Source: an uncultured bacterium (GTDB lineage: Bacteria; Margulisbacteria; WOR-1; JAKLHX01). Taken from it: a stretch of 35,298 nt of DNA. Of this stretch, positions 18,992-35,298 are shown piece after piece (the first letter of the stretch is position 1; every line of letters begins with the position of its first letter). Location of the stretch: contig CAZWKB010000004.1 of assembly GCA_964633925.1 (NCBI GenBank), positions 49,741 through 85,038 of the forward strand, written 5' to 3'. A program made the position numbers and the translations under genes. The notes beneath the pieces are model-generated. The model saw nothing but the letters and a program-made list of their open reading frames with translations, did not search any database and was not told where the DNA came from.

Positions 18992-19015
18992 GTAGAGACG
19001 CATTGAATGCGTCTC
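18992..19015 (+). repeat. REP-like GTAG-headed hairpin, family 2 (copy F)
   Basis: GTAGAGACGCAT-tga-ATGCGTCTC, a 9-bp stem that includes the last G of GTAG. Confidence 0.8.
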
Positions 19016-19041
19016 ATAAATTCACAGAAAGGTAAATAAAC

Positions 19042-19233
19042 ATGCCAACGGTAATAGAACGTCGATGCCCTCAAAATCATATTTGTCCATGTGTAAGAAT
19101 TTGTCCTGTGAAGGCAATAACACAGAACGGATATGCAGCTCCTGTTATAGATATGAAGATCTGTATAGAATGCGGGAAATGCACCAGAATGTGCCCCATG
19201 GGTGCCATTGTACTATCTGATAGAAGTTCTTAA
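19042..19233 (+). CDS. Small 4Fe-4S ferredoxin-domain protein
   Basis: Canonical second cluster motif CIECGKCTRMCP and an atypical first motif CPQNHICPCVRICP. Confidence 0.7.
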   Translation: MPTVIERRCPQNHICPCVRICPVKAITQNGYAAPVIDMKICIECGKCTRMCPMGAIVLSDRSS

Positions 19234-20133
19234 AATAGCCTGAGGACAAACTGCGATACATTTCATGCACATAATGCATTCAGTTGATTTTACTCTTGAG
19301 TTTGCTTTTACATATTCAGGAATATTTATTCCCATCGGGCAGTTCTCTGAACATGTTCCGCAGTTTGTACAGCTTTTATTATCTCCTTTTATGCGAAGGA
19401 TAGTGAATCTGCTTGAGGCCTTAAGTATAGGGGCAATAGGGCAGAGATATTTGCAAAAAGCCCTGTTGTCTTTAAACTTAATAGCAAGGATTATCCCTGT
19501 TGCATAATACAAAGCATTCCCAACTAGAAACCATATTAGTTCTGTTGTAGTTCCCATAGAGTTTTTCAAAGACTCCGCATCGGTCTGGACAAAGGCATAT
19601 TTTACGACAAAAAATAGAAATGCAACTGTGGCAAAAGACAATGCAAAGTGTATATATCTGTAATAACCCGGCATTTTCGCCTGATTGTTCTCCGTTTTTT
19701 TATATGGTAAAAGGTCAAAGATCATAGCTGACCAGCATCCCCAGCCGCACCAGTTCCTGCTAAAAAATATAGGCCCGAAAACTTTGGCTATACAATAATG
19801 TACGATGACTCCGCTCAATGTGCCTGACAAAAGATAAAAGAAAAATCCTTCGATCTGCAGATTGCTGCTGCTGAATATTCCGGCGAACAAAAAGAGCATA
19901 GTGCCTATTAAAAACATGGAGGTCATTCTTGCTTTCCTTTTGTGCTTATCAGGAAGCAGACCGAACATTGTCATTGCTATTATTTGTATGAGTGCAACAG
20001 TTATGAATACAGGCACTGCACTGGCATCTTTCATAACAAAAATGAAGAATAATACGACAAGCAAAAATCCCATCGCGATGCTCAGTGGCGCGCTCAAATA
20101 TGCTGATAATTTTGGTTTTATATCGTTTTTCAT
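19213..20133 (-). CDS. Integral-membrane 4Fe-4S polyferredoxin (NapH/MauN-like)
   Basis: Strong SD (AAGGAG), about 6 TM segments, the motifs CGWGC and CPIAP, and C-terminal CTNCGTCSENCP / CIMCMKCIAVCP. Confidence 0.75.
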   Translation of the reverse strand: MKNDIKPKLSAYLSAPLSIAMGFLLVVLFFIFVMKDASAVPVFITVALIQIIAMTMFGLLPDKHKRKARMTSMFLIGTMLFLFAGIFSSSNLQIEGFFFYLLSGTLSGVIVHYCIAKVFGPIFFSRNWCGWGCWSAMIFDLLPYKKTENNQAKMPGYYRYIHFALSFATVAFLFFVVKYAFVQTDAESLKNSMGTTTELIWFLVGNALYYATGIILAIKFKDNRAFCKYLCPIAPILKASSRFTILRIKGDNKSCTNCGTCSENCPMGINIPEYVKANSRVKSTECIMCMKCIAVCPQAILRTSIR

Positions 20134-20337
20134 TTATTTCTCCTTGCTGTTTTTTACGATAATACCAAATATTATATGCCATGGCAATGCACGCATACAC
20201 AAAAAAGATAAAGGGTGGGGGACATTATTCCAAAACCAACAGCGAGCTTATCAACAAGCTTTCTTCCTGACAGCTCTATTTGTATTATTTAATATTCCCA
20301 TTCCTTAAGGATCAAACGCCAATTCGATAAAATAAAT

Positions 20338-20361
20338 GTAGCCCCACGCCATGGCGTGGGG
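20338..20361 (+). repeat. REP-like GTAG-headed hairpin, family 3 (copy I)
   Basis: Identical to copy H over about 34 nt (ATGTAGCCCCACGCCATGGCGTGGGGAATCAATA). It is followed by a partial duplicate ATGGCGTGTGGAA and a second hairpin AAGGCC-gca-GGCCTT (20385-20399). Confidence 0.85.
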
Positions 20362-20405
20362 AATCAATAAATGGCGTGTGGAACAAGGCCGCAGGCCTTT
20401 AACAC

Positions 20406-20436
20406 ATTGACACCCCGTGTCAATATGTTGTATCAT
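20406..20436 (+). promoter_or_regulatory. Candidate promoter with a palindromic operator over the -35 box
   Basis: TTGACA (20407-20412), an 18-nt spacer, then TATCAT (20431-20436). The inverted repeat ATTGACAC-ccc-GTGTCAAT (20406-20424) overlaps the -35 box. Confidence 0.4.
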
Positions 20437-20441
20437 AGTTC

Positions 20442-20455
20442 TTGGGTCTTTTGGG
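20442..20455 (+). promoter_or_regulatory. TTGGGTCTTTTGGG motif, copy 1 (5' leader of the regulator gene)
   Basis: An exact 14-mer that is repeated at 21197-21210. It is internally a direct repeat, TTGGG-N4-TTGGG. Confidence 0.3.
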
Positions 20456-20468
20456 GAAGCCCCTAATT

Positions 20469-21173
20469 ATGGAAATTACACAAAGACAAAAAGAATTTTT
20501 AGATAAGTTATTAGATCTGTATAATATGGCAGGGCAACCTGTTCATTACACCACTATCGCGGAAAAACTCGGAATAAGTAAATGGTCGGCTTACGACATG
20601 ATGAAGCTTCTTGAAAAAAAAGGGCTCGCAAAAACTGAATATAATGTACCTGAATTGGGGCGTGGAGGTGGCAGGTCATCAGTAGTTTTTTCCCCCACGC
20701 AAAAGAGCGAAGAAATGATGACCCGTCTTGCTGAAGGGGATCCCGATGCTACTCAGTGGGCTCTGGTGAAAGAGAAGATCCTGACCAATATATCAAAACT
20801 GGAAGGGACCGAGTACGAAAAACTGTTAAATGAAATTACAGAGCAAAATCTATATCAAAAGGATGCTCTTTTATATTGCACAAATATGACAACAGCTTTG
20901 CTTTTGGTAATAAGAGGATTCAGAGATAAGCTAAAGGGAGGAATTCCTGTAAGAGAAATTCTTGAAGAGACTCCAAAGGTAAATGTGAAATTACTTAAGC
21001 TGATGGGACTTACAATAGGGCTTTCTCTAACAGGATTGAAAGCAAAATCAAGATTAGTAAAATTACTTGGCCAGTCAAAAAAATATGAATCAATGGTTCA
21101 AGACATGGACGCAAAGAGGTTGAAAATGCTCTCAGAATTCCTTGACGAAGCTGCAAAAAAACTGCTGGATTAA
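20469..21173 (+). CDS. Putative winged-helix transcriptional regulator with a helical C-terminal domain
   Basis: HYTTIAEKLGISKWSAYDMMKLLEKKGLA is a MarR/DtxR-like wHTH. ATG 20469 is preferred over TTG 20442. Confidence 0.6.
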   Translation: MEITQRQKEFLDKLLDLYNMAGQPVHYTTIAEKLGISKWSAYDMMKLLEKKGLAKTEYNVPELGRGGGRSSVVFSPTQKSEEMMTRLAEGDPDATQWALVKEKILTNISKLEGTEYEKLLNEITEQNLYQKDALLYCTNMTTALLLVIRGFRDKLKGGIPVREILEETPKVNVKLLKLMGLTIGLSLTGLKAKSRLVKLLGQSKKYESMVQDMDAKRLKMLSEFLDEAAKKLLD

Positions 21174-21196
21174 CGTTGCTTTTTTTTGTTTAGCTT

Positions 21197-21210
21197 TTGG
21201 GTCTTTTGGG
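21197..21210 (+). promoter_or_regulatory. TTGGGTCTTTTGGG motif, copy 2 (upstream of the second tolC)
   Basis: An exact copy of 20442-20455, ending 66 nt upstream of ATG 21276. Confidence 0.3.
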
Positions 21211-21275
21211 TGGTAAGTTAGAGTAGAAAGGAGATTGATTTGTGGTTAATAAATTTATAAAAGGAGTGTTGAAAA

Positions 21276-22772
21276 ATGATGAATAGAAAAATAGCCGTAT
21301 GTCTTTTTTTGGGATTGTTGTTTGTCGTTCCTGTTCAGGCTCAAAATGTGAAGGAAATTTCCCTTGAGACAGCATTGCATAAAATAATTGAAAACAATCT
21401 TACTGCGGGCATTTTAAAATATGAAGTGAAGCAGGCAGATTCCGATTATGAGAGGTCTCAGACAAAATATTCTCCTTTTATCAATGCTTCCGCTTCCCAT
21501 CAGTATAGTGACATGGACCTTTCGGGTATGTCTCCTGCGCTTGATGCTATGTATGGGGCAAAATATTCTGCTAATGAAGCTGCTATAAATATTGGACAGA
21601 CATTCAAAACCGGAACCTCCGTGGTTGGCGGGTACAAATATTCTAATATGGATTTTTCAAAAGCTCCTGCAGCAATGACAGGTTATCCAACTACCTGGAA
21701 TAATCCAACGGCATTTATTCAAGTCAAACAGGCTTTGTTAAAAAACGGTTTTGGATATTCGGAGGCAATGCAGGAAGAGCTGTTAAAGAATCAGAGAGAC
21801 AGCAAACAAATAGCTTCTAAGTATCAATTATCAGGACTGATGGTTTCCGGAATATTCGACTATTTCACGGTTACAGAAAAACAAAGAAAACTATTTGCAG
21901 CCCAGAGTGAACTTTCCTCATACAAAAAAATCTATGATGCTGTGAAAGACAACGTGTCTTTCGGACTTTATGAAAAATATAATTTATATCAGTTCAATGC
22001 TCTAATATCAGGTTCGCAAGCAAAACTGGCCGGAGCTGAATTGAATTATAAAAAAGCGACTCACAAATTACTTTGTGATCTCAATATGCCGGAAAGTAAG
22101 GAAGATTCTATATCTCTCGTAAGCGTTGATGAGTCTCTTCATAAATATGATGTTGTATCTCTTTATGAAACAGCACTTAAAAAAAGAGCGGATATATTGC
22201 AGGCAAAACTAGCTCTCGACAGTGCCGAAAAACAGGTAAAAATGATTGACAATCAGGCCCTTCCTGATGCCCAACTGGAGCTGCAGGGAGTTGACGAAAG
22301 ACTAAATGCTGCAAGCACGGGTTCAAACGCTCTAAAATATCTTAATTGGAGTGCCAAGGTCTCGGTAACAAAATTATTATCGGATACTGATAGTTCCATT
22401 AAACAGCGCAATGCAAAATATCAGCTTGAGCAGGCAAAGTTGCAATATCAAAATCTGAAAAATCAGATAAAATATGAAGTTGCTGATGGTGTTGAAACTA
22501 TACAAACGGCATATATCGGAGTAGAAAAAACAAAAGAGATGGTAAGAGACAGTGACTTATATTTAAATGCATTGCAAAAACGTTTAAGACAGGGCAAGCT
22601 TAGCACTGTCGAACTAAAAAACGCTGTTGATATGACCGTAGCTGCTAATAATGCCTACTCAGAGGCAGTAACGGGATATAACATGGCACAACTTAACCTT
22701 GATCTTGTAACTAATACAATATTTGAAAAATACCATCTTGATATAAATAAAGCAGTAGGAGGGATAAAATAA
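21276..22772 (+). CDS. TolC-family outer-membrane efflux protein (second copy)
   Basis: SD AAAGGAG, signal peptide MMNRKIAVCLFLGLLFVVPVQA, and OEP-type duplicated repeats. Confidence 0.8.
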   Translation: MMNRKIAVCLFLGLLFVVPVQAQNVKEISLETALHKIIENNLTAGILKYEVKQADSDYERSQTKYSPFINASASHQYSDMDLSGMSPALDAMYGAKYSANEAAINIGQTFKTGTSVVGGYKYSNMDFSKAPAAMTGYPTTWNNPTAFIQVKQALLKNGFGYSEAMQEELLKNQRDSKQIASKYQLSGLMVSGIFDYFTVTEKQRKLFAAQSELSSYKKIYDAVKDNVSFGLYEKYNLYQFNALISGSQAKLAGAELNYKKATHKLLCDLNMPESKEDSISLVSVDESLHKYDVVSLYETALKKRADILQAKLALDSAEKQVKMIDNQALPDAQLELQGVDERLNAASTGSNALKYLNWSAKVSVTKLLSDTDSSIKQRNAKYQLEQAKLQYQNLKNQIKYEVADGVETIQTAYIGVEKTKEMVRDSDLYLNALQKRLRQGKLSTVELKNAVDMTVAANNAYSEAVTGYNMAQLNLDLVTNTIFEKYHLDINKAVGGIK

Positions 22773-25700
22773 TGAAAACTATAATAGATTTTCTTATTAA
22801 ACAAAAGATGACGGTTTTCTTGTTTGTGATAGCGATCCTTGTTGCCGGATACTTTGCAATTACTTCTATTAATAAAGAATCGTTTCCGGAAGTTTGCCTG
22901 GACATGGTCGTTGTTCAGACAATATATCCAGGAGCCTCACCTGATGAGCTGGAAAATCTTGTCTCGATCCCTATAGAGAAAAAACTCAGAGAGATAAGCG
23001 GCATAAGCAAAGTTGTTGATTTTAATATTGATAATTGTTCTGTGGTTCTCGTGTCTCTTGATGAAGGCTTATCGACAGGTAAACGTTCCAAGATCGTTGA
23101 TGATATTAAGAGCTCCGTAAATGATATAAAAGATTTTCCTTCCACTGTAAAAAAACCGGAAGTGACCGAGATCACTACGGAAAAAACTCAAGTATTGGAT
23201 ATTGCTTTAGTTTCAAACAAACAGGGAGATTCCGCCTATGCGGAGCTGCTTTCAACAGCAAAGAACTTGCGTGAAAAACTATTATTTGTAGATGGTGTGG
23301 CAGAGGTGAAAAAGAATGGATACAATGATCGTCAATATTTGGTAGAAGTAAACCCTGCATCTCTGCGGGATTTTCGTATCGGACTCAATCTGGTACTCTA
23401 CAAACTGGCAACAAGAAATATCAATCTTCCCGGTGGGGTGCTTCGTGTAGGGGATAATGAGTTCGTGCTTCGTACTACCGGAGAGTTTAAAGGTATAGAT
23501 GATATCAGGAATATGGTTATTTTCTCAAACGATGCCGGTTATGTAACAAGATTAAGGGATATTGCCAAAGTTACTGATACTTTCAAAGAAACAGAAATTA
23601 TTCATAGGTTCAACGGTACAGATGCTATAGTTCTTTCCGTAAATAAAAAGCAGATTGCAGACACCATAAAAACGGCGGATAAAATAAAGGGTCTTATGGA
23701 GATTGAAAACAAAAATCTTCCCAATGGGATATCGGCTTATGAATTTAATGATATGAGCCGTTTTGTAAAAGTGCGTTTGTCTGCGTTGATCATAAACTCG
23801 TTGATTGGTTTTGCTCTTTTACTCATAATTTTGGTGTTGATGCTCGGCTATCGCATGTCTGCAATTGTCAGTGTCAGTATTCCTGTAACATTCATGATCT
23901 CTTTTATTTGCATGAAAGCACTTGGGATTACTCTGAATATTGTAAGTATGTTCGCTCTTGTAATGGTTCTCGGCATGGTTGTCGATTTTTCAGTCATAGT
24001 TTGTGAAAACACTTATCGTCACATGGAAAAAGGGCTGAAACGTCGTGATGCTGTTGAAAAAGGTCTAATAGAAATCCTTCCTGCAATGACAACGACAATG
24101 ATTTGTATTGTAGTTGCATTCGCTCCGTTATTATTTGTTACAGGGCTTGTAGGCAAGTTCATTTATGCAATTCCGGCAGTTATTATTATCTGTCTAATTG
24201 CTTCTTTTCTTTGTGCTGTTCTGGTCATTCCTGCAATACTTGACTCTTTTGCAAAGCTGAATAAGAAACATATTGCAGAGTTAAAAAAACAAAAAACATC
24301 GGGTCCGAGTCTTTACCGAAGGCTACTGTCCTTCATTGTAAAACGTCGCTACTGGGCTGTTGCCACTCTGTTGCTTGTTTCTTTTATCGTTATGTTTGCT
24401 GCTGTCCATTATTCAAGTTTTGTTTTTATGAATGGGGCATCAGAGTTAATTGTGATCAAAACAAAAATGCCAAAAAGTACAAGTCTTGAGGCAAATAAAA
24501 GAGCCATCCTTCCGATCGAAAAGATCGTTAAGGATATATATCCAAAATCGATAGTTGAAAATTATTATACATTTATAGGGATTCAGGAAGGGGGCAAGAC
24601 AGACAAGATTCTTGATATGTCTCCAAAGGATGGGACATCCAAGGGTTCTATTCATCTCAATCTTTGTCCGGAGGATGAACGCTCGATAAAGGGAGAAGAA
24701 ATCCTTGAGACGGTACGCAAGAAAATTGATGAAGCTCAAAAACGCGGAAAAATCGATTCTCGCATGGAGATCAAATATGGAATAAGCAGGGTAGGTTTGC
24801 CTGTAGGAACTGCTGTCAATGTTGAAATTAGAGGAAACGATTATGATGTCATGAAAAAGATGGCCGATGAATACAAAGAATATTTGTCTTCAATAAAAGG
24901 GATAGAAGATATTTATGATGATCTGGAGCAGGGAAAAGAGGAATATCATTATACTATCAATGAAGAAAAGGCAAGCCGTGCCGGATTGTCTATGCAGGAA
25001 GCTTCTCAGGCTCTCTACGCTTCATTCAAAGGTGTTGCTGCAACAACACTAAATCAGGGCGATGAAAAAGTTGAAGTTCTTGTGCGTTTTCCGGATTGGG
25101 CGCGCCGTCAGTCAAGCAGCCTAAATGATGTTATGGTCTCAAATGCTTATGGCGCAGTGATCCCGTTGAGCGAGATCACTTCATATACAAAGCAGACAGG
25201 GGTTTCGATGATAAGCCGCAAAAATTATATGCGCATTGTTCAGGTCAAAGCTAATGTAGACGGTAAGAATCTCACTTCTATGACGGCAAATGGCATGCTA
25301 AAAAAACACTTCAAAGATATTGAATCTCGATATCCGGGTTATGTTGTAAATTATGCCGGAGAGCAGGAAGATTCAGAAAAGAGCTTAAAGAGTTTGGGCG
25401 TTTTATTCATATTTGCAATTGTCCTGATATACATGATAATTGCAGCTTTCTTCAATTCTTTATCTCTGCCGATCGTAGTAATGATTTGTATCCCGTTTTC
25501 TCTTGTTGGTATTTGTCTGGCTCTTTTTATGCATGGGAATCAACCCCTGACATTTATGTCAATACTTGGTTTCTTCAGTCTTGCCAGTATTATTGTCAGC
25601 AATACATTGGTGCTGGTGCAGTTTATTATTAATGCCCGCGAGCATGGAATGACTGTGACCGAAGCAGTTGTAGAGGGAAGTGCCGCTCGTATACGTCCGA

Positions 25701-25888
25701 TATTTTTAACAAGCGGAGTTGTTGTGTTAGGTCTCATACCGACAATTTATGGCATAGGAGGAAAAGACGAATTCGTAGTCCCTCTTGCAATGGCCTTTGG
25801 TTATGGTTTATTATTTGCTACTATACTGACTCTTGTAATTGTTCCGTGTTTTTATCATATATGGAGTGATATTAAAGGTGAAAAATAG
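22772..25888 (+). CDS. RND efflux permease (AcrB/HAE-type, 1038 aa; second copy)
   Basis: The start overlaps the tolC stop by 1 nt. Motifs include TIYPGASPDELE, GMVVDFSVIVCENT and RIRPIFLTS. It has 12 TM segments plus two periplasmic loops. Confidence 0.9.
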   Translation: MKTIIDFLIKQKMTVFLFVIAILVAGYFAITSINKESFPEVCLDMVVVQTIYPGASPDELENLVSIPIEKKLREISGISKVVDFNIDNCSVVLVSLDEGLSTGKRSKIVDDIKSSVNDIKDFPSTVKKPEVTEITTEKTQVLDIALVSNKQGDSAYAELLSTAKNLREKLLFVDGVAEVKKNGYNDRQYLVEVNPASLRDFRIGLNLVLYKLATRNINLPGGVLRVGDNEFVLRTTGEFKGIDDIRNMVIFSNDAGYVTRLRDIAKVTDTFKETEIIHRFNGTDAIVLSVNKKQIADTIKTADKIKGLMEIENKNLPNGISAYEFNDMSRFVKVRLSALIINSLIGFALLLIILVLMLGYRMSAIVSVSIPVTFMISFICMKALGITLNIVSMFALVMVLGMVVDFSVIVCENTYRHMEKGLKRRDAVEKGLIEILPAMTTTMICIVVAFAPLLFVTGLVGKFIYAIPAVIIICLIASFLCAVLVIPAILDSFAKLNKKHIAELKKQKTSGPSLYRRLLSFIVKRRYWAVATLLLVSFIVMFAAVHYSSFVFMNGASELIVIKTKMPKSTSLEANKRAILPIEKIVKDIYPKSIVENYYTFIGIQEGGKTDKILDMSPKDGTSKGSIHLNLCPEDERSIKGEEILETVRKKIDEAQKRGKIDSRMEIKYGISRVGLPVGTAVNVEIRGNDYDVMKKMADEYKEYLSSIKGIEDIYDDLEQGKEEYHYTINEEKASRAGLSMQEASQALYASFKGVAATTLNQGDEKVEVLVRFPDWARRQSSSLNDVMVSNAYGAVIPLSEITSYTKQTGVSMISRKNYMRIVQVKANVDGKNLTSMTANGMLKKHFKDIESRYPGYVVNYAGEQEDSEKSLKSLGVLFIFAIVLIYMIIAAFFNSLSLPIVVMICIPFSLVGICLALFMHGNQPLTFMSILGFFSLASIIVSNTLVLVQFIINAREHGMTVTEAVVEGSAARIRPIFLTSGVVVLGLIPTIYGIGGKDEFVVPLAMAFGYGLLFATILTLVIVPCFYHIWSDIKGEK

Positions 25889-27476
25889 AGAATGGTTTTT
25901 AGTATTAATATTAATACTATTACCTTTATTCTTATTCGGTTTTAATCTTGGGCTTCCCAGTTTGTGGGATGAATCTGAAGCCATGTATTGCGAAGTCGCC
26001 AGAGAGATCCTTCAGACTGGGGACTGGATCACTATGCATTTCAATTTTCAGGAGTGGTTTATCCACCCTCCGTTTTACATGTGGCTTACAGCGTTAACGG
26101 CAAAATTTATCGGCTGGAGCGAACTTGTTTGCAGACTTTGGGCTGCCATATTTGGTGTCGGATCAGTACTCGCAACATATTATTTAGGCAAGGATTTATT
26201 TCAAAAGAAGGTCGGATTCTTTGCAGGGCTGATCATGGCAACAACGCTTCAGATAATCATTGCTTCTCGTATTGGAGTAATGGACAGCGCCTTGAACTTT
26301 TTGGTGACGATCTCAATCCTGTTGTTTTACAAAGGTAACAAAACAGGCAAAGACATATATTATTTGTTAGGTGTGATTGCTGCTTCATTTGCCGTTTTAA
26401 CCAAAGGACCAATAGGTATTATTTTGCCTGTACTAATAGCTTTCGTATATTTGTTGTTGGCAAAAGAATTCAAGAGCTTAAAATTTGCGATGCTATTGAA
26501 GGCGGCTGCTGTTTTTTTAATAATAGTTGCTCCATGGTATATAGCAGAGTACCTGCGTCATGGTGGTGAATTCATAAAATATTGCTTTGGATATCAATCG
26601 TTTGGAAGGTTTTTCGGATCTGTCGAGGCTCAGTCTGGCCCATGGTATTACTATCTGGGAATAATCCCTCTGGGTTTTTTGCCATGGACGGCTTTTTTAC
26701 CGGCATCTCTGATCCAATTATTTAGATCAAGAGCAAAAAAGGAATCATTATTACTTTTTGTCTGGATGGTAGTTGTGTTGGTTTTGTTTTCAGTTGCGGG
26801 AACAAAACTGCCAAATTATATTCTCTTTATTTATCCGGCATTATCCATAGTTGTGGCAAAATTTGTATGCGACTATATTTATAAAGACGGGGAGCAATCC
26901 ATTGTAAAAGGGATGCATTTTTCCTTTGTCCTTCTATTACTAATAGTTTCTTTAATGGTTTTTGCAGCTTACAGATACTTGCAATTCGGTCTGCAGGTAG
27001 AATACATTGAAAACGCCCACATTTTTTCTGCTTTGGCTTATGTTGTTATCATTGGGACATCCTTATCTTTTGTCTTGTTTTTGTTTGGCAAAAAAAGATA
27101 CAGTGCTTTCCTGGCAATAATTTTTACTGTGTGCTTAATGATTTGGACTTTGTCTGTCGATATTCTTCCTGTGATAGAGCAGTACAAGCCAATTAAGGCA
27201 TTGGCAACAGAAGTGAAGGGGTTAATGCATCACGATGAACAATTAGCATGCTATAAAACCTCAAGAATTGCCAGTATCGTATATTACATGGGCAGTCCCG
27301 TTATTTGGATTGAAAAGGAAGACTCTCTCAATGCATTTGTTGAACAGAAGAATGATATATATTATTATATTATGAGAAAAAATGATTACAGCGAATTAAA
27401 AAATAAAAAATCTCTGTATTTAATAGGTCAAAAGGCGGACATGTTGCTCTTATCAAAAAAGAAAGGATCGAATTAG
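25839..27476 (+). CDS. PMT/ArnT-type polyprenyl-phosphate-sugar-dependent glycosyltransferase (GT39/GT83-like)
   Basis: LWDESEAMYCEVAREILQTGDW...HPPFYMWL is the typical DE loop plus multi-TM architecture. The start is uncertain: TTG 25839, GTG 25866 or GTG 25878, all overlapping the RND 3' end. Confidence 0.8.
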   Translation: MFRVFIIYGVILKVKNREWFLVLILILLPLFLFGFNLGLPSLWDESEAMYCEVAREILQTGDWITMHFNFQEWFIHPPFYMWLTALTAKFIGWSELVCRLWAAIFGVGSVLATYYLGKDLFQKKVGFFAGLIMATTLQIIIASRIGVMDSALNFLVTISILLFYKGNKTGKDIYYLLGVIAASFAVLTKGPIGIILPVLIAFVYLLLAKEFKSLKFAMLLKAAAVFLIIVAPWYIAEYLRHGGEFIKYCFGYQSFGRFFGSVEAQSGPWYYYLGIIPLGFLPWTAFLPASLIQLFRSRAKKESLLLFVWMVVVLVLFSVAGTKLPNYILFIYPALSIVVAKFVCDYIYKDGEQSIVKGMHFSFVLLLLIVSLMVFAAYRYLQFGLQVEYIENAHIFSALAYVVIIGTSLSFVLFLFGKKRYSAFLAIIFTVCLMIWTLSVDILPVIEQYKPIKALATEVKGLMHHDEQLACYKTSRIASIVYYMGSPVIWIEKEDSLNAFVEQKNDIYYYIMRKNDYSELKNKKSLYLIGQKADMLLLSKKKGSN

Positions 27477-28534
27477 TGTTATCGATAATTATTCCAACCT
27501 ACAATGAAAAAGAGAATATAAAAGAACTGGCTGAAAAAATATTTTGCATTTTTAAACAGAATAATATTGAAGGAGAGATAGTAGTTGTCGATGATAATTC
27601 GCCGGATGGAACAGGATCTGTTGCAGAAAAATTGAAAGATAAATACGCTATAGAAGTAGTTCATCGTCCAAGACGGCTTGGGTTGGCCAGTGCTGTCACA
27701 AACGGATTTATCGCTGCAAGAGGGGATGTCTTATGCGTAATGGATGCTGATCTAAGCCATCCTCCGGAGGCAATTCCTGATATGTTCAGATTAATTCAGG
27801 AAGAAAAGGCTGATTTTGTTGTTGGAAGCAGATATGTAAAAGGTGGCTCTTCAAAAGAATGGCCGTTCATAAGAAGATTTATATCGTCTTTATCCTGTTC
27901 TTTGACTAGGGGATTGACCGGAGTAAAAGATGCAACTTCAGGATATTTCATGATAAAAAAAGAAGTTATTAAGGATGCCGTTTTAAAACCAAAAGGTTTT
28001 AAAATATGTCTGGAAATAATTGTCAGAGGAACTTATAAATCCATTTGTGAGGTCCCGATTATCTTCACAGACAGAAAACACGGAAAAAGTAAATTGGGTT
28101 TCAGCGAATCCATTAAATATGGGGTGCATCTTATAGAATTGTATTCTCATAAATTTCCTCTCATGGCTCAATTTCTAAAATTTGCTTTGGTAGGTCTGAT
28201 TGGTTTTTTCATCCAGATGATTATTCTATATAATTTAGTCGAGATCTTGGATCTTTATTATCTGTATGCAGCTGTCATTGCCTTTTTTGTGGCTGTAACC
28301 AGCAACTTTTTATTGAATAGGACATGGACTTTTACTCCAAGTAGCAATAGAAATATTTATCAACAATACATCTCTTTTGTCTCTTTATGCGTTTTAGGTG
28401 CATTGTTGAACACCTTTCTTCTCTTTGTTTTGGTTGAATATGCTCATCTTTGGTATTTGAATGCCCAATGTATTAGCTTTGTGTTTGTCGGTCTGAGCAA
28501 TTTTTTATTTATTAGATCGATAACATTTAGCTAG
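27476..28534 (+). CDS. Polyprenol-phosphate glycosyltransferase (GT2, Dpm1/ArnC-like) fused to a GtrA-like membrane domain
   Basis: GT2 motifs IIIPTYNEKENI, VVDDNSPDGT, MDADLSHPP. The C-terminal 4-TM region carries the GtrA signature (FLKFALVGLIGF...NFLLNRTWTF). GTG 27476 overlaps the upstream TAG. Confidence 0.85.
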   Translation: MLSIIIPTYNEKENIKELAEKIFCIFKQNNIEGEIVVVDDNSPDGTGSVAEKLKDKYAIEVVHRPRRLGLASAVTNGFIAARGDVLCVMDADLSHPPEAIPDMFRLIQEEKADFVVGSRYVKGGSSKEWPFIRRFISSLSCSLTRGLTGVKDATSGYFMIKKEVIKDAVLKPKGFKICLEIIVRGTYKSICEVPIIFTDRKHGKSKLGFSESIKYGVHLIELYSHKFPLMAQFLKFALVGLIGFFIQMIILYNLVEILDLYYLYAAVIAFFVAVTSNFLLNRTWTFTPSSNRNIYQQYISFVSLCVLGALLNTFLLFVLVEYAHLWYLNAQCISFVFVGLSNFLFIRSITFS

Positions 28535-28548
28535 TAATAAAATGAATT

Positions 28549-28557
28549 TGCTATAAT
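28549..28557 (+). promoter_or_regulatory. Possible extended -10 element (TGcTATAAT) ahead of the flavodoxin gene
   Basis: TGCTATAAT lies 34 nt upstream of ATG 28591, and the SD AAGGAGG lies in between. Confidence 0.25.
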
Positions 28558-28590
28558 TCAAGATAATTATTCAAACAAGGAGGATTTATC

Positions 28591-29067
28591 ATGAAAACAT
28601 TGGTGGTTTATTATTCCAAGACAGGGACAACAAAAAAACTGGCGGAGAAATTGGCAAAAGAGTTTAATGCCGATATAGAAGAACTGATAGATAAAACAAA
28701 AAGATCCGGGATTATTGGTTGGATTTTAGCCGGGCGTGATGGAATGCAAAGAAGAGCGACAAATATAGTTGATACAAAAAAGAATGCGGCAGATTATGAT
28801 ATGGTTCTGGTCGGCGGGCCTCTTTGGGGTTTCAAGGGAGTTGCCCCTGCCTCAAGAACCTATTTAATAAAGAACAAAGACAAAATAAAAAAAGCAGCTT
28901 TTTTTATGACCAGAGCTGGTAATCCTTCAAGTGACCCAGCATTAAATGATCTGATTTCTGTTTACGGAAAACCTGTTGCCGGCACTCTTGATATTAAAGA
29001 GAGCGAGATCAACAGCTCCGAAACCGCCATGCAAATAATCGATTTCGCCAACAAAATAGCTATATAA
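28591..29067 (+). CDS. Flavodoxin-family protein
   Basis: The N-terminal FMN phosphate loop is MKTLVVYYSKTGTTKKLAEKLA. Confidence 0.75.
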   Translation: MKTLVVYYSKTGTTKKLAEKLAKEFNADIEELIDKTKRSGIIGWILAGRDGMQRRATNIVDTKKNAADYDMVLVGGPLWGFKGVAPASRTYLIKNKDKIKKAAFFMTRAGNPSSDPALNDLISVYGKPVAGTLDIKESEINSSETAMQIIDFANKIAI

Positions 29068-29117
29068 AATTTCTCGTGAAATTTATTCGTATCATTTCCG
29101 ATACAGTAATGAATAAC

Positions 29118-29142
29118 GTAGGGGCGGACCTTGTGTTCGCCC
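29118..29142 (+). repeat. REP-like GTAG-headed hairpin, family 1 (copy B)
   Basis: GTAG followed by GGGCGGAC-cttgt-GTTCGCCC, with one G:T pair. Confidence 0.8.
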
Positions 29143-29237
29143 GTTAATAACCGACAAAATGATGGTTAGTGATATTGTTTCTGTTTCGTAAATACTGTAT
29201 ATTTATATATACAATAGATATTGCGTTTTGTCCCATT

Positions 29238-29261
29238 GTAAAGACGCATTGAATGCGTCTC
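29238..29261 (+). repeat. REP-like hairpin, family 2 (copy G, head GTAA)
   Basis: GTAAAGACGCAT-tga-ATGCGTCTC. The stem and loop are identical to copy F, and the head is mutated G>A. Confidence 0.75.
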
Positions 29262-29281
29262 TCAAAAATGAGGGGTAGTTT

Positions 29282-30217
29282 GTGCAAAAAAATCTGTGGT
29301 CCAGAATAAAAAAATATAGGTTTGCTTACTATTTCATAGCACCGACATTGATAAGTATGTTCCTTCTTCATATATTTCCTGTCGCCCAGGCGTTTTACAT
29401 GTCTTTCCTGAAACTGAACCAAATGACCTTAAGTTCCTATCTCGGAGCTCCCTTTATTGGGCTTCAAAATTATTACGAAGTTTTGTTCGATGCAAACAGT
29501 CCTATCCATATAGGGCTTCTCGAAGCTGTTAGAAACACTATCATATATACAATCATCGTTACTACCGGAACCACGGGGGTTGGAATGCTAATCGCGCTAA
29601 TGGTTCATCGCAAATTCAGAGGACAGGCAATGGTTAGGGCTTTATTTCTATTCCCATGGGTAGTCCCTACATATGTAACAGGTCTTTTATGGGGCTTTAT
29701 GTGGCAAAAGGAGATAGGGATTATAAACATAGTTCTCGTTGACTGGTTGCATCTTTTTCCGTCAAAACCATTTTGGTTGCTGGGGCAAAACACAATATGG
29801 GCGATCATTTTTCCGACAATATGGAGATTTTGGCCGCTTTCAATGCTAATGCTTCTTGCCGGTATGCAGTCAATTCCGGATGAGCTTTACGAAGCAGCTG
29901 AACTTGATGGTGCCAGTGGGTGGCGAAAATTCTGGTCCATCACTTTCCCGATGCTAAGGCCTGTTTGGGCAATTCTCATTCTGTTTGGTCTAATTTACAA
30001 CACATACTCCTTTAATATAGTAATAATGATGTTCGGTTTTGGTGCTGGATATCCTGGTGAGTGGGGAGATCTTATGATGACGAATATATTTAGGAATACA
30101 TTCCAGCAATGGGCATTCGGAGTTGGAGCTGCTGCCTCTGTTCTCATAATGGTAGTCATGATAGTAATTGTTAATTTCTGGTATAGATTCTACAGAAAAT
30201 CAGAGGAGCTAACCTAA
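29282..30217 (+). CDS. ABC sugar-transporter permease (MalF/UgpA-type)
   Basis: The GTG start follows GAGGGG. It has 6 TM segments and the EAA loop YEAAELDGASGWRKFWSITFPMLRP. Confidence 0.85.
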   Translation: MQKNLWSRIKKYRFAYYFIAPTLISMFLLHIFPVAQAFYMSFLKLNQMTLSSYLGAPFIGLQNYYEVLFDANSPIHIGLLEAVRNTIIYTIIVTTGTTGVGMLIALMVHRKFRGQAMVRALFLFPWVVPTYVTGLLWGFMWQKEIGIINIVLVDWLHLFPSKPFWLLGQNTIWAIIFPTIWRFWPLSMLMLLAGMQSIPDELYEAAELDGASGWRKFWSITFPMLRPVWAILILFGLIYNTYSFNIVIMMFGFGAGYPGEWGDLMMTNIFRNTFQQWAFGVGAAASVLIMVVMIVIVNFWYRFYRKSEELT

Positions 30218-32022
30218 TGTTGAAAATTCCGTATTACGTACAGCAGAGGATCACAAAGAGAATTATTGATGTGATTATGATAATACTTCTTATCATTACA
30301 TTGTTCCCGATCGTATGGATGGTCTTCTCATCTTTCAAAAGTAATACAGAGATTCTTTTGGGGCAGATCCCATTTGGCAGAGCAGGAAACGATGTTATCT
30401 ATATGGAATCACGAGGCAAGAATCTTTTTGCCATGACCGCCGATGGAGGGATTAGTAAGTTTGACACGGATTCAAAAAATCTCATAGCATATGATTCACT
30501 AAAGTCTATGGCAACAAGTTTCATTATGGATGCAGGATATGTTTGGGCCGCCACGTCAGACAAAGGTCTTGTAAGAATATCAATAGATGATTTTTCAAAA
30601 CAAACATTTTTTGATCCAAAGATAAAAGATCTTGACATCAACAAAGTTGCTGCAACAAATCTAATATTAGAAAAAAATTCCGTTTGGGTGTCATGGCAGC
30701 AAAAAAACACCGAATATTTAATGAGATTCAACAAAGATCTCATGACATTTTCAGACAAGATAGATCTGACCTGTGCACTCTCACCATTTCAGATAACGTC
30801 GATGACAACAATAGGAAATGTTATGTGGATAGGGACAACCAGAGGACTCATATCTTATGATCTAAGCAAAAAATCGATACTAAAATCTTATAATACATCA
30901 GATATCAATTTGCCTTACACTTCAATAAGCAAACTAGTTGCTTACAAAGAAGATCTCTATCTCTCAACAACAGATGGCTTATTTCAATTCTCACCAAAAA
31001 GCGGAAAGATAGTGAATTCATTCACTTCTGATAACGGACTCTCATCAAGTAGGGTAAGTTATGTTATGCCGTACAATGACAAGATAATTGCTGGAACAAA
31101 CAATAGTCTTTCTATCGTTGATTTTAGAACAAAGAAAGTTGTAAATTATGACAAACTATTTGTTCCGGTTGCAAATTCAAAGGCAAAAGGACTTGTTTAT
31201 GGGGATGTGTTCTATATTACAAAGGCTCCAAAAGGTATATTTATCGGATCTTCAGGCGGAAGAGTCAGTGCTCTTGATGGAACTTTTGTTGTAAAGGAAT
31301 CATTAAAAGTAAAAGATGGTCACATAATGGTCAGGTGGCGTAACTATATAGACTTATGGAAAAACATAAATTTTGGCCTTTATTTAAAGAATTCCTTGAT
31401 CATATGCGGAATAACAATGATACTCGCGATGATATTTGCAACAACAGCTGCCTATTCACTAGCAAGATTCAATTTCCCTGGCAATCAGTTCTTCAGCGTA
31501 GGCGTTCTTGCCACGCAAATGATCCCTGCAATTATGTATTTGATCCCAATATATATTATGTTCACTCAATTCACAAATTGGACCGGAATTCCAGTAAAAG
31601 GAACACATGTAGGTCTCATAATGATATACAGCGCGTTTTTTATTCCTTTCTCCATATGGATACTTCGTGGGTTTTTCGCATCCATTCCTGCAGAGCTTGA
31701 AGAAGCAGGTCGCATAGACGGTTGCTCTCAGTTTCAGGTGTTCTGGTATATAGTTCTTCCTCTAGCCATCCCTGGAATAATTGCAACAGGAGCCTATGTG
31801 TTTTTGACTGCATGGGACGAGCTTATGTTTGCTTGGGTTTTATGTAATGCCGATACAATGACTATTCCTGTTGGGATCAGACTGTTTGTAGGAAATTATC
31901 AAAACAGATTTGACCTGATGATGGCTGCTGCAACGGTAGCAACAATTCCTGTAATGGTCCTTTTCTTTATGCTACAAAAATATATCGTAAAGGGGTTAAC
32001 TGCAGGAGCTGTAAAAGGATGA
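30217..32022 (+). CDS. ABC sugar-transporter permease (MalG/UgpE-type) with a ~330-aa periplasmic beta-propeller-like insertion after TM1
   Basis: TM1 is IIDVIMIILLIITLFPIVWMVF. About seven repeats of the two-component-regulator-propeller type follow (VWAATSDKGLVRIS, VMWIGTTRGLISYD, LYLSTTDGLFQFS, IIAGTNNSLSIVD, IFIGSSGGRVSALD). Then comes a normal 5-TM permease core with the EAA loop EEAGRIDGCSQFQVFWYIVLPLAIPG. Confidence 0.8.
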   Translation: MLKIPYYVQQRITKRIIDVIMIILLIITLFPIVWMVFSSFKSNTEILLGQIPFGRAGNDVIYMESRGKNLFAMTADGGISKFDTDSKNLIAYDSLKSMATSFIMDAGYVWAATSDKGLVRISIDDFSKQTFFDPKIKDLDINKVAATNLILEKNSVWVSWQQKNTEYLMRFNKDLMTFSDKIDLTCALSPFQITSMTTIGNVMWIGTTRGLISYDLSKKSILKSYNTSDINLPYTSISKLVAYKEDLYLSTTDGLFQFSPKSGKIVNSFTSDNGLSSSRVSYVMPYNDKIIAGTNNSLSIVDFRTKKVVNYDKLFVPVANSKAKGLVYGDVFYITKAPKGIFIGSSGGRVSALDGTFVVKESLKVKDGHIMVRWRNYIDLWKNINFGLYLKNSLIICGITMILAMIFATTAAYSLARFNFPGNQFFSVGVLATQMIPAIMYLIPIYIMFTQFTNWTGIPVKGTHVGLIMIYSAFFIPFSIWILRGFFASIPAELEEAGRIDGCSQFQVFWYIVLPLAIPGIIATGAYVFLTAWDELMFAWVLCNADTMTIPVGIRLFVGNYQNRFDLMMAAATVATIPVMVLFFMLQKYIVKGLTAGAVKG

Positions 32023-33704
32023 TAAACAACGAGAAAGGAATTTCAAAGATGAATAGACTATTGACTATCTGCTTAGTTCTTCTTGGCCTCGTTTCAGTTT
32101 CATACGCTGCAACCACGGTTGCAAAAACTTCCACATCACAGGCTCCGGGTTGTTATTTTGGCATATTCAGAGAGGGTTCTCCTTCAAATATGGGGAACGT
32201 AGATCAGATAGAAGAAAAACTAGGCAAGAAATTCTCAATGGTAATGTGGTATCAGGATTGGGATTGTAAATTTCCAAAGGCAGAGATCGAGAAAATTCAC
32301 AAAAGAGGAGCAGTTCCTCACATAGTATGGGAGCCATGGTATTGGGCAAACAGAGACAAAAATCTTATGGACGATATTATCTCAGGCAAACAGGATGCAT
32401 ATATTAAATCATGGGCAAAGGGAATCAAGGAATCTAACGGAACAGTTTTCATTAGATATGCACATGAATTCAATATCGATGGATATCCATGGGGCATTGT
32501 TCATAACGGGAAAAATCCAAAGAAATATATAGACGCATACAGACATGTATATGACATTTTTACAAAAGAAGGGGCAAAGAATGCAAAGTTTGTTTGGTGC
32601 CCAATGGCTCAGTCATGGCCTCAAGAACCTTGGAATGACATGAATCTTGCATATCCAGGAGACAAATATGTTGACTGGATAGGTCTAGACGGATATAACT
32701 GGGGAACCTCTCAAGATTGGAGTTCATGGCAATCTTTCACTGAATTATTCAGAGATGTTGCAAGAGAGATGTGGCGCAAATATCCGACAAAACCAATAAT
32801 GGTTGCAGAGTTTGCATCGGCAACAAAAGGCGGCGATAAGGCAAAGTGGATAAAGGATCTCACTAATGAGCTAAAAAAGATGCCATACATAAAAGCTGTA
32901 CTCTGGTTTGATGAAAAGAAAGAAACTGATTGGAGAATAGAATCAACTTCTTCTACATTAGCCGGTTTCAAAACAATGATTAAGGATCCTTATTTTGCAT
33001 CTTCTTCAAAGGGGATTGAGATAATCGGGACATCAGCTATGGATCTTTCAAACAAAAAAAACACAAAGGCCATAATGGTATCGACAGCTCCAAAAATAGA
33101 CGGTGTTCTAAATGATTGGAAAAAAACTTCACCAATCATAATCGACAAACTCAGTCAGGTTCAGGAAGGTTCAACCGTCTGGAAGAATAAAGATAATCTT
33201 AGCGGTCAGTTGTTTGTAAATTGGGACAAAAACAATCTATATGTAGCAGGAGATATTATTGATAACGTTCCTGTACTGAATCCAAACAAAAAAAGCAATA
33301 TCTGGAAGGGTGATGCTATCGAGATTGTTATTGGTTTAGATAAGTCTGCAAAATCTGACAGGGCCTTTACGACAAAAGGAGATTTTCAAATTGGATTTGC
33401 AACAGGGGATAACAAGAAACAAGCTCCTTCTATCTGGGTTTGGAAAAATAATGAATCGCCTGCAGGTTCAAAAATAGTTGTAAAGAAATCAGCAAATGGC
33501 AAAGGTTATACCATAGAAGCCAGCATTCCGTGGAAGTCACTGAATGGTTTTACTCCGTCAGCAGGAGACAAACTAAGTTTTGATGTAGCTCTGGATGATG
33601 CAGATGTTGCAGGTAAAGACAGAACTGTCCAAATGGTTTGGTCTGGTGATTATTTGTTCTACAAAGATCCTGGGGTCTGGGGTTCAATCGAATTTGTAAA
33701 ATAA
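32019..33704 (+). CDS. Secreted GH26-like glycoside hydrolase with a C-terminal CBM9/DOMON-like carbohydrate-binding domain
   Basis: The signal peptide MNRLLTICLVLLGLVSVSYA suggests ATG 32049 as an alternative start. GH26-type motifs are IRYAHEFNIDGYPWG, YVDWIGLDGYNWG and VAEFAS. The C-terminal domain reads APKIDGVLNDW...GDAIEIVIG...GYTIEASIPW. Confidence 0.7.
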   Translation: MINNEKGISKMNRLLTICLVLLGLVSVSYAATTVAKTSTSQAPGCYFGIFREGSPSNMGNVDQIEEKLGKKFSMVMWYQDWDCKFPKAEIEKIHKRGAVPHIVWEPWYWANRDKNLMDDIISGKQDAYIKSWAKGIKESNGTVFIRYAHEFNIDGYPWGIVHNGKNPKKYIDAYRHVYDIFTKEGAKNAKFVWCPMAQSWPQEPWNDMNLAYPGDKYVDWIGLDGYNWGTSQDWSSWQSFTELFRDVAREMWRKYPTKPIMVAEFASATKGGDKAKWIKDLTNELKKMPYIKAVLWFDEKKETDWRIESTSSTLAGFKTMIKDPYFASSSKGIEIIGTSAMDLSNKKNTKAIMVSTAPKIDGVLNDWKKTSPIIIDKLSQVQEGSTVWKNKDNLSGQLFVNWDKNNLYVAGDIIDNVPVLNPNKKSNIWKGDAIEIVIGLDKSAKSDRAFTTKGDFQIGFATGDNKKQAPSIWVWKNNESPAGSKIVVKKSANGKGYTIEASIPWKSLNGFTPSAGDKLSFDVALDDADVAGKDRTVQMVWSGDYLFYKDPGVWGSIEFVK

Positions 33705-33708
33705 TATT

Positions 33709-33734
33709 GTAGGGGCGGACCTTTAAGGCCGCCC
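33709..33734 (+). repeat. REP-like GTAG-headed hairpin, family 1 (copy C)
   Basis: GTAG followed by GGGCGG(A)CC-tttaa-GGCCGCCC. Confidence 0.75.
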
Positions 33735-33794
33735 TCTCTGTATCCATGAATGAAATTCCCTGAAATTCTATCAACATTCTGTCGATAAGTTATT

Positions 33795-33819
33795 GTAGGG
33801 GCAGGCCTAGTGCCAGCCC
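33795..33819 (+). repeat. REP-like GTAG-headed hairpin, family 1 variant (copy D)
   Basis: GTAG followed by GGGCAGGC-ctagt-GCCAGCCC, with one A/A mismatch. Confidence 0.7.
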
Positions 33820-33840
33820 AAATACATAAGGGAAATAACA

Positions 33841-34872
33841 ATGAGAAAATTATTAATTCCAATTTTGCTATTTGCTGCGTCATTAAGCCTTTTTGGTTGC
33901 GGTTCTTTCTACGATGTTATTAGATACGCGCCCTCTGAAATTACTCTTGCCGGTAAGATTTTACCATCTACCGAAGGCTGCTATATCGGAGCCTTTGTTT
34001 CAGATTCAAATATCAAAGACCGCAGCACTCAAATGATTTTAGATGTTTACGAACATTATTTGGCCCGCAAGGTATCTGTTGTGATGTGGTTTGTTCCAAT
34101 ACGAGATTCATTCCCATTGCAGGAATGCAATGTAGTTGCTGCTCGTGGAGATGTCCCATGCATAACTTTTTCTTGGGAAAACTATATGTTCAGTGATTCT
34201 ACGATCAATTTTTCTCTTCAGGATATTATTGACGGCAAGTTCGATACTAATTTTGAAATGTGGGCAATTGCAGCAAAGGAATACAAAAGACCTGTATTTT
34301 TTAGACCATTTCATGAAATGAACGGAAATTGGTATCCATGGGACGGAACTCACAACGGAGGTGCCGTAGACGGACCTGCAAAATTTATTCAGGCTTGGAA
34401 GCATATTCATAATATTTTTGCTAAAGCAGGGGCAACAAACGTAACTTGGGTTTGGAATATCAATGCGGAGAACATTCCAGATGAAACGTGGAATTCATCC
34501 AACAACTATTATCCGGGTGATGATTACGTAGATTGGATAGGAATAGACGGATACAACTGGGGAACAACTAATGGCAGTTCATGGAAAACATTTGACCAGA
34601 TATTTTTGTCTTCATATTCGGATATAGTTGCAAGATATTTAACCAAACCAATCATGATAGGAGAGATGGGCTGTTCTGATATAGGAGGAGATAAATCTTC
34701 TTGGATCACAGATTCTTTTGCTGCAATGAAGTCAAAATATCCCGCAATAAAGGCGTATAATTGGTTTAATATCAACAAGGAGACTGATTGGAGAATAGAT
34801 TCATCGTCAGATGCAAAGGCAGCTATTAAATCGGCAATGGGTGATGATTATTATTTGGGCGATATAAAATAA
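33841..34872 (+). CDS. GH26-like glycoside hydrolase lipoprotein
   Basis: The lipobox is LSLFGC. Motifs are FRPFHEMNGNWYPWDG (acid/base region), YVDWIGIDGYNWG and MIGEMGCS (nucleophile region). Confidence 0.75.
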   Translation: MRKLLIPILLFAASLSLFGCGSFYDVIRYAPSEITLAGKILPSTEGCYIGAFVSDSNIKDRSTQMILDVYEHYLARKVSVVMWFVPIRDSFPLQECNVVAARGDVPCITFSWENYMFSDSTINFSLQDIIDGKFDTNFEMWAIAAKEYKRPVFFRPFHEMNGNWYPWDGTHNGGAVDGPAKFIQAWKHIHNIFAKAGATNVTWVWNINAENIPDETWNSSNNYYPGDDYVDWIGIDGYNWGTTNGSSWKTFDQIFLSSYSDIVARYLTKPIMIGEMGCSDIGGDKSSWITDSFAAMKSKYPAIKAYNWFNINKETDWRIDSSSDAKAAIKSAMGDDYYLGDIK

Positions 34873-34894
34873 AATTTGAAGGGGGTGAAGAAAA

Positions 34895-35298
34895 TTGAAA
34901 AACAAATCGATATTCTTAGCAGTGATTTTCGTGTTTGCACTTTGTGCAAATGCAATTTCTGCAGAGAGGTTGATAGATGATTTTGAAAAAAATCCTAACC
35001 TTAAGACTCCTGAATGGTGGATGTTTGACAGTACAAAAATAGCCGTAGTAAACAACCCTGCGTTTAGACCAGGAGACGCTGTCGCAAAATCAAACCAGAA
35101 AAAGGTTCTCAGCATCAAGGCTGAGGCAAAGAACTGGTATTGTGGCGGATTTGGGTCATATTTTGGAGTAGATGCTTCATCATTTAAAGGTATTTCTATG
35201 AATGTGTATGGGAATGGTGAGGGATCAGGAAAGATCAAGATAGAGCTTTATGATGATGAGAAAGGATCTTATGAAACTGCATATGACAGAACATGGAA
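34895..35298 (+). CDS. Secreted protein, 3'-truncated by the window; N-terminal beta-sandwich/CBM-like region
   Basis: This ORF is not in the supplied track. TTG 34895 follows GGGGGTGAAG, and the frame stays open to the window end. The signal peptide is LKNKSIFLAVIFVFALCANAISA. NWYCGGFGSYFG...GISMNVYGNGEGSGKIKIELYDDE resembles CBM/CIA30-type modules, but only weakly. Confidence 0.5.
   Translation, partial: MKNKSIFLAVIFVFALCANAISAERLIDDFEKNPNLKTPEWWMFDSTKIAVVNNPAFRPGDAVAKSNQKKVLSIKAEAKNWYCGGFGSYFGVDASSFKGISMNVYGNGEGSGKIKIELYDDEKGSYETAYDRTW

Follow-up and report, generated by a model that had tools for sequence, protein, structure and literature searches.

We analysed a 35,298-nt stretch of the genome of an uncultured Margulisbacteria (WOR-1) bacterium (contig CAZWKB010000004.1; hereafter the window), in which the gene at 30217..32022 encodes a 601-aa permease subunit of an ATP-binding cassette (ABC) importer that carries a seven-bladed beta-propeller between its first two transmembrane (TM) segments. 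The protein is likely the MalG-type subunit of a CUT1 importer for beta-gluco-oligosaccharides that depends on a solute-binding protein (SBP), with the propeller as an accessory domain that the transporter can do without. This reading draws on the architecture and homology of the permease, on the coexistence of propeller-permeases with SBPs in related operons, and on sister lineages in which the propeller has been secondarily shortened or lost. Type I ABC importers are not known to take substrate from anything but classical two-lobe binding proteins, and the P2 loop of E. coli MalF is the one well-studied accessory periplasmic domain of which we are aware; here, a propeller of the type used in glycan sensors is placed in the loop by which MalG makes contact with the binding protein.

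A MalG-type permease with a beta-propeller in loop P1

The permease gene is made up of the following features:

30217..32022, + strand: MalG-type permease subunit with propeller insert, 601 aa (open reading frame, Pfam/NCBIfam matches and AlphaFold model)
30265..30330, + strand: TM1, aa 17-38 (hydropathy; AlphaFold helix 6-39)
30373..31332, + strand: predicted seven-bladed beta-propeller of the Reg_prop / hybrid two-component sensor type, aa 53-372, in periplasmic loop P1
31333..32019, + strand: MalG-type core, aa 373-601, with a conserved W-x-NY..W.N helix, TM2-TM6 and P3 loop TIPVGIRLFVGNYQNRFD
31693..31776, + strand: EAA coupling loop, aa 493-520, the docking site of the ABC ATPase, which reads ELEEAGRIDGCSQFQVFWYIVLPLAIPG

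Outside the insert, the protein is an ordinary MalG-type permease with an EAA loop, much as an initial annotation made from the DNA had described it. The Pfam model BPD_transp_1 matches aa 410-594 (E 1.8e-19; 70.6 bits against a cutoff of 26.4), and aa 388-601 align to positions 83-296 of the 296 in the MalG model (NCBIfam PRK10998, E 2e-39). Because the score of 135.9 bits lies below the equivalog cutoff of 261 that would mark orthology to E. coli MalG, we refer to the protein as MalG-type and not as a MalG orthologue. The EAA loop (EEAGRIDG-CSQFQVFWY-IVLP, aa 495-515) contains the pattern EAA-x3-G-x9-I-x-LP, and E495, E496, A497, D501 and G502 within it are invariant in an alignment of 57 homologues. 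Hydropathy gives six TM segments (17-38, 390-412, 425-449, 464-488, 505-530 and 566-588), with which the helices of the AlphaFold model agree. By its domain matches, the gene product belongs to the membrane subunits of type I ABC importers, of the CUT1/MalG type.

Since a Lys/Arg-rich stretch precedes TM1, the positive-inside rule and the topology of MalG indicate that the N-terminus should face the cytoplasm and the propeller insert the periplasm. When the protein is aligned with insert-free homologues of Margulisbacteria, Endomicrobia and Paenibacillus, the insert falls at G49-W374, which by hydropathy is between TM1 and TM2 as first proposed, and the extra sequence is bounded there by two motifs common to ordinary MalG-type permeases. 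Chimeric misassembly, which had been named as a way in which this architecture might prove false, is ruled out: the permease is not a chimera, because its full-length homologues come from over 100 independent assemblies, and an identical protein is encoded in another assembly (JGI contig L001).

The insert, of about 320 aa, was modelled by AlphaFold2 from the 57-homologue alignment with a predicted local distance difference test score (pLDDT) above 90 over aa 55-372. In the model, 28 strands form seven groups of four between aa 60 and 364, and the blade motif h-W/Y/F-h-G/A-T/S..G-L..h-D recurs in six of the seven blades (at aa 70, 109, 203, 247, 290 and 341), with a blade spacing of 41-51 aa and a degenerate blade 3. 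The seven repeats noticed initially therefore do form a predicted propeller.

The proposed kinship to the sensor propellers of Bacteroides hybrid kinases is likewise supported. When a profile built from the insert alone was compared with PDB sequences, the four best matches were 4a2l (BT4663; E 9e-33), 3ott and 3va6 (BT4673; 4e-31) and 3v9f (7e-30), and the next-best solved structure after the Bacteroides hybrid two-component sensors reached only 2e-6. This kinship is seen only with the family profile: the Reg_prop model (PF07494), to which the initial annotation had likened the repeats, gives no match on the 601-aa permease itself at E<1. Pfam models of the propeller clan match most of the 57 homologues, namely PorZ_N_b_propeller in 48/57, PQQ_2 in 29/57, DUF5074 in 21/57 and Reg_prop in 12/57. 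A Foldseek search with the model returned propellers exclusively; since generic propellers in the PDB (Tako8, Fbw7, BamB) scored about as well as the hybrid two-component sensor domains, this comparison confirms the fold and not the subfamily. An insert-only search of 1.84 billion representatives found about ten permease-sized clusters first, followed by proteins of 800-1450 aa with 3-12 propeller stretches each, which is the size of hybrid two-component sensors.

The insert thus appears to be a propeller of the kind that Bacteroides hybrid two-component sensors use for oligosaccharide binding, with binding by the insert itself putative. It shares with the B. thetaiotaomicron sensors BT4663, BT4673 and BT3049 (Reg_prop) and with P. 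gingivalis PorZ the blade motif, the seven blades, the periplasmic location and a polysaccharide-utilisation context, with profile homology that reaches E 1e-30 to 1e-33. In those sensors, however, two propellers stand in tandem at the N-terminus, whereas the permease has a single propeller inside a transporter loop, with BPD_transp_1 as its sole other domain and neither Y_Y_Y nor a kinase or regulator output; unlike that of BT4663, its ligand binding is putative. BT4663 binds disaccharides at the entry faces of its propellers (PMC5121618).

Fusions of permease and propeller are well represented in the databases, where they bear the name ABC transporter permease and nothing more. We found more than 100 full-length homologues (45-67% identity) from Candidatus Margulisiibacteriota, including Saganbacteria and WOR-1, to which a scan of one genome per species added homologues from Termititenax, Marinamargulisbacteria and Fibrobacterota (37-41% identity), so that the family spans at least two phyla, Margulisiibacteriota and Fibrobacterota. 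Fibrobacterota inserts match a propeller profile made only from Margulisbacteria, and do so over its full length (E 1e-18 to 1e-37). Sequence identity among homologues is 72-90% in the TM core versus 24-48% in the insert, where conservation falls mostly on Gly, Trp and Leu residues with a structural part in the blade motif.

The same scan also added a 478-aa class, an insert-free 289-aa class from Margulisbacteria, and insert-free relatives in Endomicrobia and Paenibacillus. The 478-aa class covers only positions 1-138 and 284-343 of the propeller profile and therefore lacks blades 4-6; we relied on profile coverage for this blade content, as the AlphaFold model of the 479-aa class (from 10 close homologues) had a mean pLDDT of 43.9 and was unusable. 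In a neighbour-joining tree of the TM parts, rooted on Paenibacillus, the Margulisbacteria classes of 478 and 289 aa branch from within the 600-aa class. Both keep the same locus, and the loci of a 601-aa (L004) and a 479-aa (L005) permease are syntenic. Sister lineages have thus secondarily shortened or lost the propeller while keeping the locus, which shows, at the level of sequence comparison, that it is dispensable.

Binding protein and ATPase genes of propeller-permease systems

Since the initial annotation had reported a locus without binding-protein and ATPase genes and had taken the propeller for a possible built-in substitute for the former, we examined where these genes lie in the window and in related genomes. 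No SBP_bac or ABC_tran gene was found anywhere in the window (1..35298), and a six-frame search with a hidden Markov model (HMM) of the SBP was also empty there, so that the absence extends across the whole 35 kb. The same propeller nevertheless coexists with an SBP encoded in cis in other lineages. In Fibrobacterota, a MalK-like ATPase (ABC_tran and TOBE_2), an SBP_bac_1 lipoprotein (E 1e-28 to 1e-38), the MalF-like subunit and the propeller-MalG follow one another in this order, forming a complete operon in L041, L042, L051, L052, L053, L068 and L073; in L055 the SBP is present and no ATPase was detected in the sequence at hand. An HMM of these SBPs shows that the permease pair is also immediately preceded by an SBP orthologue (E 1e-124 to 1e-134) in Termititenax and other Margulisbacteria of termite guts, in Marinamargulisbacteria and in L032, L033 and L083, and the HMM matches in the insert-free systems of Endomicrobia and Paenibacillus as well.

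In the Saganbacteria/WOR-1-like clade, to which the window belongs, the situation is different: some 18 distinct 600-aa-class loci for which the upstream sequence is long enough have no SBP or ATPase within 10 kb. Yet the 478-aa and the insert-free 289-aa classes of this clade likewise have no SBP or ATPase in the locus, and because insert-free sister lineages share the absence, it characterises the clade and does not follow the propeller. Among the 58 SBP-sized open reading frames of 40 SBP-less loci, no SBP family was found in the 25 most frequent Pfam families listed, in which a single weak match could escape.

A search with an alignment of the SBPs did find orthologues annotated as Saganbacteria/WOR-1 (E ~1e-195), about 50% identical to the Termititenax SBP. 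On contig JAPLKZ010000011.1 of a Saganbacteria genome (GCA_026387835.1), the SBP lies at ~10.1-11.5 kb and the propeller permease at ~58.8-60.6 kb, 47 kb apart, with no permease gene near the SBP. In L092, the SBP operon divergently adjoins an operon of MalF-like subunit, 603-aa permease and GH26-CBM9 enzyme. The module around this orphan SBP consists of SBP, GlmS-like, GH94, GH42 and GH94 genes in L090, L092 and L095, with an unannotated 1037-aa gene in place of the first GH94 in L094. Since the permease pair has no SBP, and the SBP has no permeases and is accompanied by cytoplasmic beta-glucoside phosphorylases, the two fit together as one system spread over two loci.

Substitution of the SBP by the propeller, as the substrate receptor of an SBP-free importer at least in the Saganbacteria/WOR-1-like clade, is in our view very improbable. 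It would account for the SBP-less loci and the window, the propeller's family binds oligosaccharides, and the propeller occupies a loop at the SBP docking surface. Against this, however, a full-length orphan SBP orthologue is kept in the clade, linked to GH94 genes and with no other permease beside it, the P3 'scoop' loop of the permease is nearly invariant, and the insert folds as a beta-propeller and not as a fused binding protein. Because propeller-permeases coexist with a classical SBP, whether in cis in Fibrobacterota, Termititenax and Marinamargulisbacteria or as an orphan in the window's own clade, the propeller most likely does not replace it, and the notion of a built-in SBP is not supported. 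An importer that works without a binding protein is unlikely, and an SBP gene missing from the locus is weak evidence for SBP-independent transport.

Some further observations concern the SBP and MalF-like genes. A GlmS-like gene (glutamine amidotransferase and two SIS domains, 607-616 aa) always follows the orphan SBP (L090 10001..21398; L092 9089..20165; L094; L095), which puts a GlmS paralogue, with no evident role there, into an operon for beta-glucoside uptake. A lone MalF-like permease gene (L094 9007..9930, 307 aa) stands divergently beside the orphan SBP with no MalG-type gene adjoining it; a 601-aa propeller permease may lie elsewhere on the same contig, in which case the transporter genes would be scattered. 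In Candidatus Termititenax persephonae (L037 7515..9980, protein P0284), SBP and MalF-like subunit form one open reading frame of 808-821 aa (SBP_bac_1/8 and BPD_transp_1), which is either a natural SBP-permease fusion beside the propeller-MalG or the result of a lost stop codon. In the closed 1.77-Mb chromosome OY969425.1 (L004 / L022 9328..9876), a 182-aa open reading frame without a Pfam match lies upstream of the 601-aa permease, and a MalF-like gene was not detected there; this gap may stem from frameshifts in the long reads or from true decay.

Possible roles of the propeller

In the arrangement that we propose, the 601-aa MalG-type subunit would pair with the MalF-like subunit encoded just upstream, and the transporter would need an ABC ATPase and most likely a classical SBP, both encoded outside the locus. 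Secreted lichenase-like GH26 enzymes would cut beta-glucan outside the cytoplasmic membrane, and the released oligosaccharides would be imported and then, in relatives, degraded by the GH94 phosphorylases co-encoded with the orphan SBP. In MalFGK2, loop P1 of MalG contacts (cross-links to) MalE, loop P2 of MalF holds MalE, and the P3 'scoop' loop of MalG enters the SBP binding site (PMC6906923). Since BT4663 binds disaccharides and MalG P1 contacts MalE, the most likely role of the propeller would be an accessory one: in loop P1, next to where the SBP docks, it would bind glycans as an additional module, retain the SBP, or do both. It would thereby raise the efficiency with which the beta-gluco-oligosaccharides released by the GH26 enzymes are captured, without being required for transport itself. 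An accessory substrate-capture domain is thus a possible description of it, and we infer its biochemical role, whether glycan binding or SBP docking, by analogy.

The propeller might instead only hold the SBP at the transporter, as the Ig-like P2 domain of MalF does, and bind no glycan at all. This would suit its position in the MalG loop that cross-links to MalE (PMC6906923), a MalF-like partner that is short and has no P2 domain, the coexistence of propeller and SBP in many lineages, and a family-wide lack of a conserved glycan pocket. However, the nearest relatives of the propeller are glycan sensors and not protein-docking modules, it diverges far faster than the transporter core, and the lineages that lost it keep the orthologous locus, and we regard docking as its only function as unlikely. 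We also consider it unlikely that the propeller serves the Saganbacteria/WOR-1-like clade as a second substrate receptor in its own right, capturing longer beta-glucan oligosaccharides at the transporter mouth and then either handing them to the translocation pathway or gating ATPase activity. If true, this type I ABC importer would have receptors of two kinds, or would be able to work without its SBP.

Several points weigh against the view of an SBP-dependent importer with an accessory, glycan-related propeller. The SBP and ATPase of the window's genome are read from relatives, the sequence of that genome covered here being 35 kb, and a different permease pair, so far unseen, might in principle be the partner of the orphan SBP. 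Where the propeller would stand with respect to the SBP dock, we likewise infer from the maltose transporter. No conserved polar pocket is evident in the insert across the family, and the fast evolution of the insert (a mean identity to the window protein of 33%, against 80% in the TM part) would fit either changing ligands or weak constraint. Finally, the neighbour-joining tree of the TM parts, on which the order of propeller loss is based, carries no support values.

An SBP-dependent importer with an accessory propeller would resemble E. coli MalFGK2-MalE in its six TM helices, EAA loop, conserved P3 loop and paired MalF-type subunit, in the MalK-type ATPase with TOBE and SBP_bac_1 binding protein held by orthologous operons, and in having one subunit with a large folded periplasmic domain. 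This domain is, however, a 320-aa propeller in loop P1 of MalG, whereas the E. coli transporter has an Ig-like one of 180 aa in loop P2 of MalF; the likely substrate is a beta-gluco-oligosaccharide and not maltodextrin; and, unlike in the E. coli maltose system, the SBP and ATPase genes of the window's clade are unlinked from the permease genes. The fused substrate-binding domains of GlnPQ and OpuA and the MalE-MalF fusion of Bdellovibrio are alike in that the membrane subunit of a type I importer bears a covalently linked extracytoplasmic domain, but there ordinary binding-protein folds replace the free SBP, whereas here the fused domain is a propeller and a separate SBP orthologue persists. 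We found no description of a permease-propeller architecture in the searchable literature, including a 2026 review of glycoside transporters, which agrees with the initial impression that the arrangement had not been characterised. Since seven-bladed, roughly four-bladed and insert-free versions occur as natural controls in the same locus, the role of the propeller in capture, SBP retention or gating is directly testable.

Neighbouring genes and the likely substrate

The permease gene is flanked by the following genes:

29282..30217, + strand: MalF/UgpA-like permease subunit, 311 aa, without a P2 domain (BPD_transp_1 E 7.5e-20; UgpA E 1e-28; MalF E 7e-23)
32019..33704, + strand: secreted GH26 (lichenase-like) and CBM9 enzyme, 561 aa (CBM9_1 E 9e-20; GH26 E 2e-8)
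33841..34872, + strand: GH26 (lichenase-like) lipoprotein, 343 aa, lipobox LFGC (GH26 E 1e-13)
34895..35298, + strand: start of a secreted CBM11/SGBP-like protein, cut by the window end (55% identical to a 223-aa protein of L002)

The stop codon of the MalF-like gene overlaps the start of the 601-aa permease gene, and the two adjoin in nearly all related loci. In contig L001, which is 99.5-99.8% identical to the window over 20080..35257, the MalF-like gene (L001 9053..10001, corresponding to 29282..30217) is broken by indels into two pieces of 204 and 88 aa; this is probably an assembly error, the window copy being intact at 311 aa.

The two GH26-like enzymes of the initial annotation are confirmed as GH26 members, whereas the mannan specificity that it had allowed for is not. 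The best solved relative of the 561-aa GH26-CBM9 enzyme is the GH26 domain of C. thermocellum endoglucanase H (E 3e-48), which we take to be the lichenase CtLic26A. For the 343-aa lipoprotein this domain reaches E 2e-52, against 1e-9 to 1e-13 for mannanases, which score 1e-5 to 1e-13 across the two neighbours. A mannanase identity is therefore ruled out for both, as they are far closer to the endoglucanase H domain. The CBM-like gene is incomplete at the window edge, and its orthologues of about 220 aa give weak matches to CBM_11 (E 0.003) and SGBP_B_XBD (E 1e-7), in partial agreement with the initial reading. Related loci carry GH2, GH16, GH48 and GH116, and also GH94. Because of the lichenase-like GH26 pair, the CBM11-like protein and the glycoside hydrolase content of related loci, the theme of the locus is beta-glucan and not mannan; the substrate would accordingly be beta-gluco-oligosaccharides and not mannan-derived sugars, a correction of the expected substrate that rests on these family assignments.

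The start of the GH26-CBM9 gene overlaps the permease stop codon by 4 nt, and this overlap recurs in many relatives. Such close linkage would suit the suggestion, also made initially, that the propeller anchors this enzyme, or else further secreted proteins, where sugars enter the transporter, so that their products pass straight into uptake. The GH26-CBM9 gene, however, comes after the permease gene just as well in the 478-aa class and in the 289-aa class without an insert, and the propeller loci of Fibrobacterota, Termititenax and L020-L030 are without it. Since its presence, with a full, a shortened or no propeller, is uncorrelated with the propeller, the enzyme is not tied to it, and we consider hydrolase docking extremely improbable.

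The window and L001 stop within ~40 nt of each other inside the CBM11-like gene, and this shared break suggests a repeat or strain-variable region that disrupts assembly. Exact-match metagenome scans for sequence continuing downstream of the window gave no match. In relatives, a conserved set of small secreted proteins (~170-270 aa) follows the GH26 genes (L002 14595..20366; L008 13633..19360; L092 1..4417) and ends with an 815-826-aa protein with SdrD_B and T2SS-T3SS_pil_N matches; the set may form an assembly that binds glycans at the cell surface.

Just before the transporter operon, at 25839..28534, the window encodes, in this order, a 545-aa glycosyltransferase of PMT/ArnT-like type, a 352-aa GT2-GtrA fusion similar to polyprenol-phosphate sugar synthases, and a flavodoxin. 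The first two look like a periplasmic glycosylation pair and are not conserved beside the transporter in relatives. A trehalose synthesis cluster lies at 179..4640, with a GT20 OtsA-like protein, a trehalose phosphatase, a DUF5752 protein and a TreT-type trehalose synthase. Two pairs of an outer-membrane factor and an AcrB-type RND efflux protein are encoded at 4696..9035 and 21276..25888, with no recognisable membrane-fusion protein gene between them. These pairs indicate a diderm envelope, and the propeller would therefore lie in a true periplasm.

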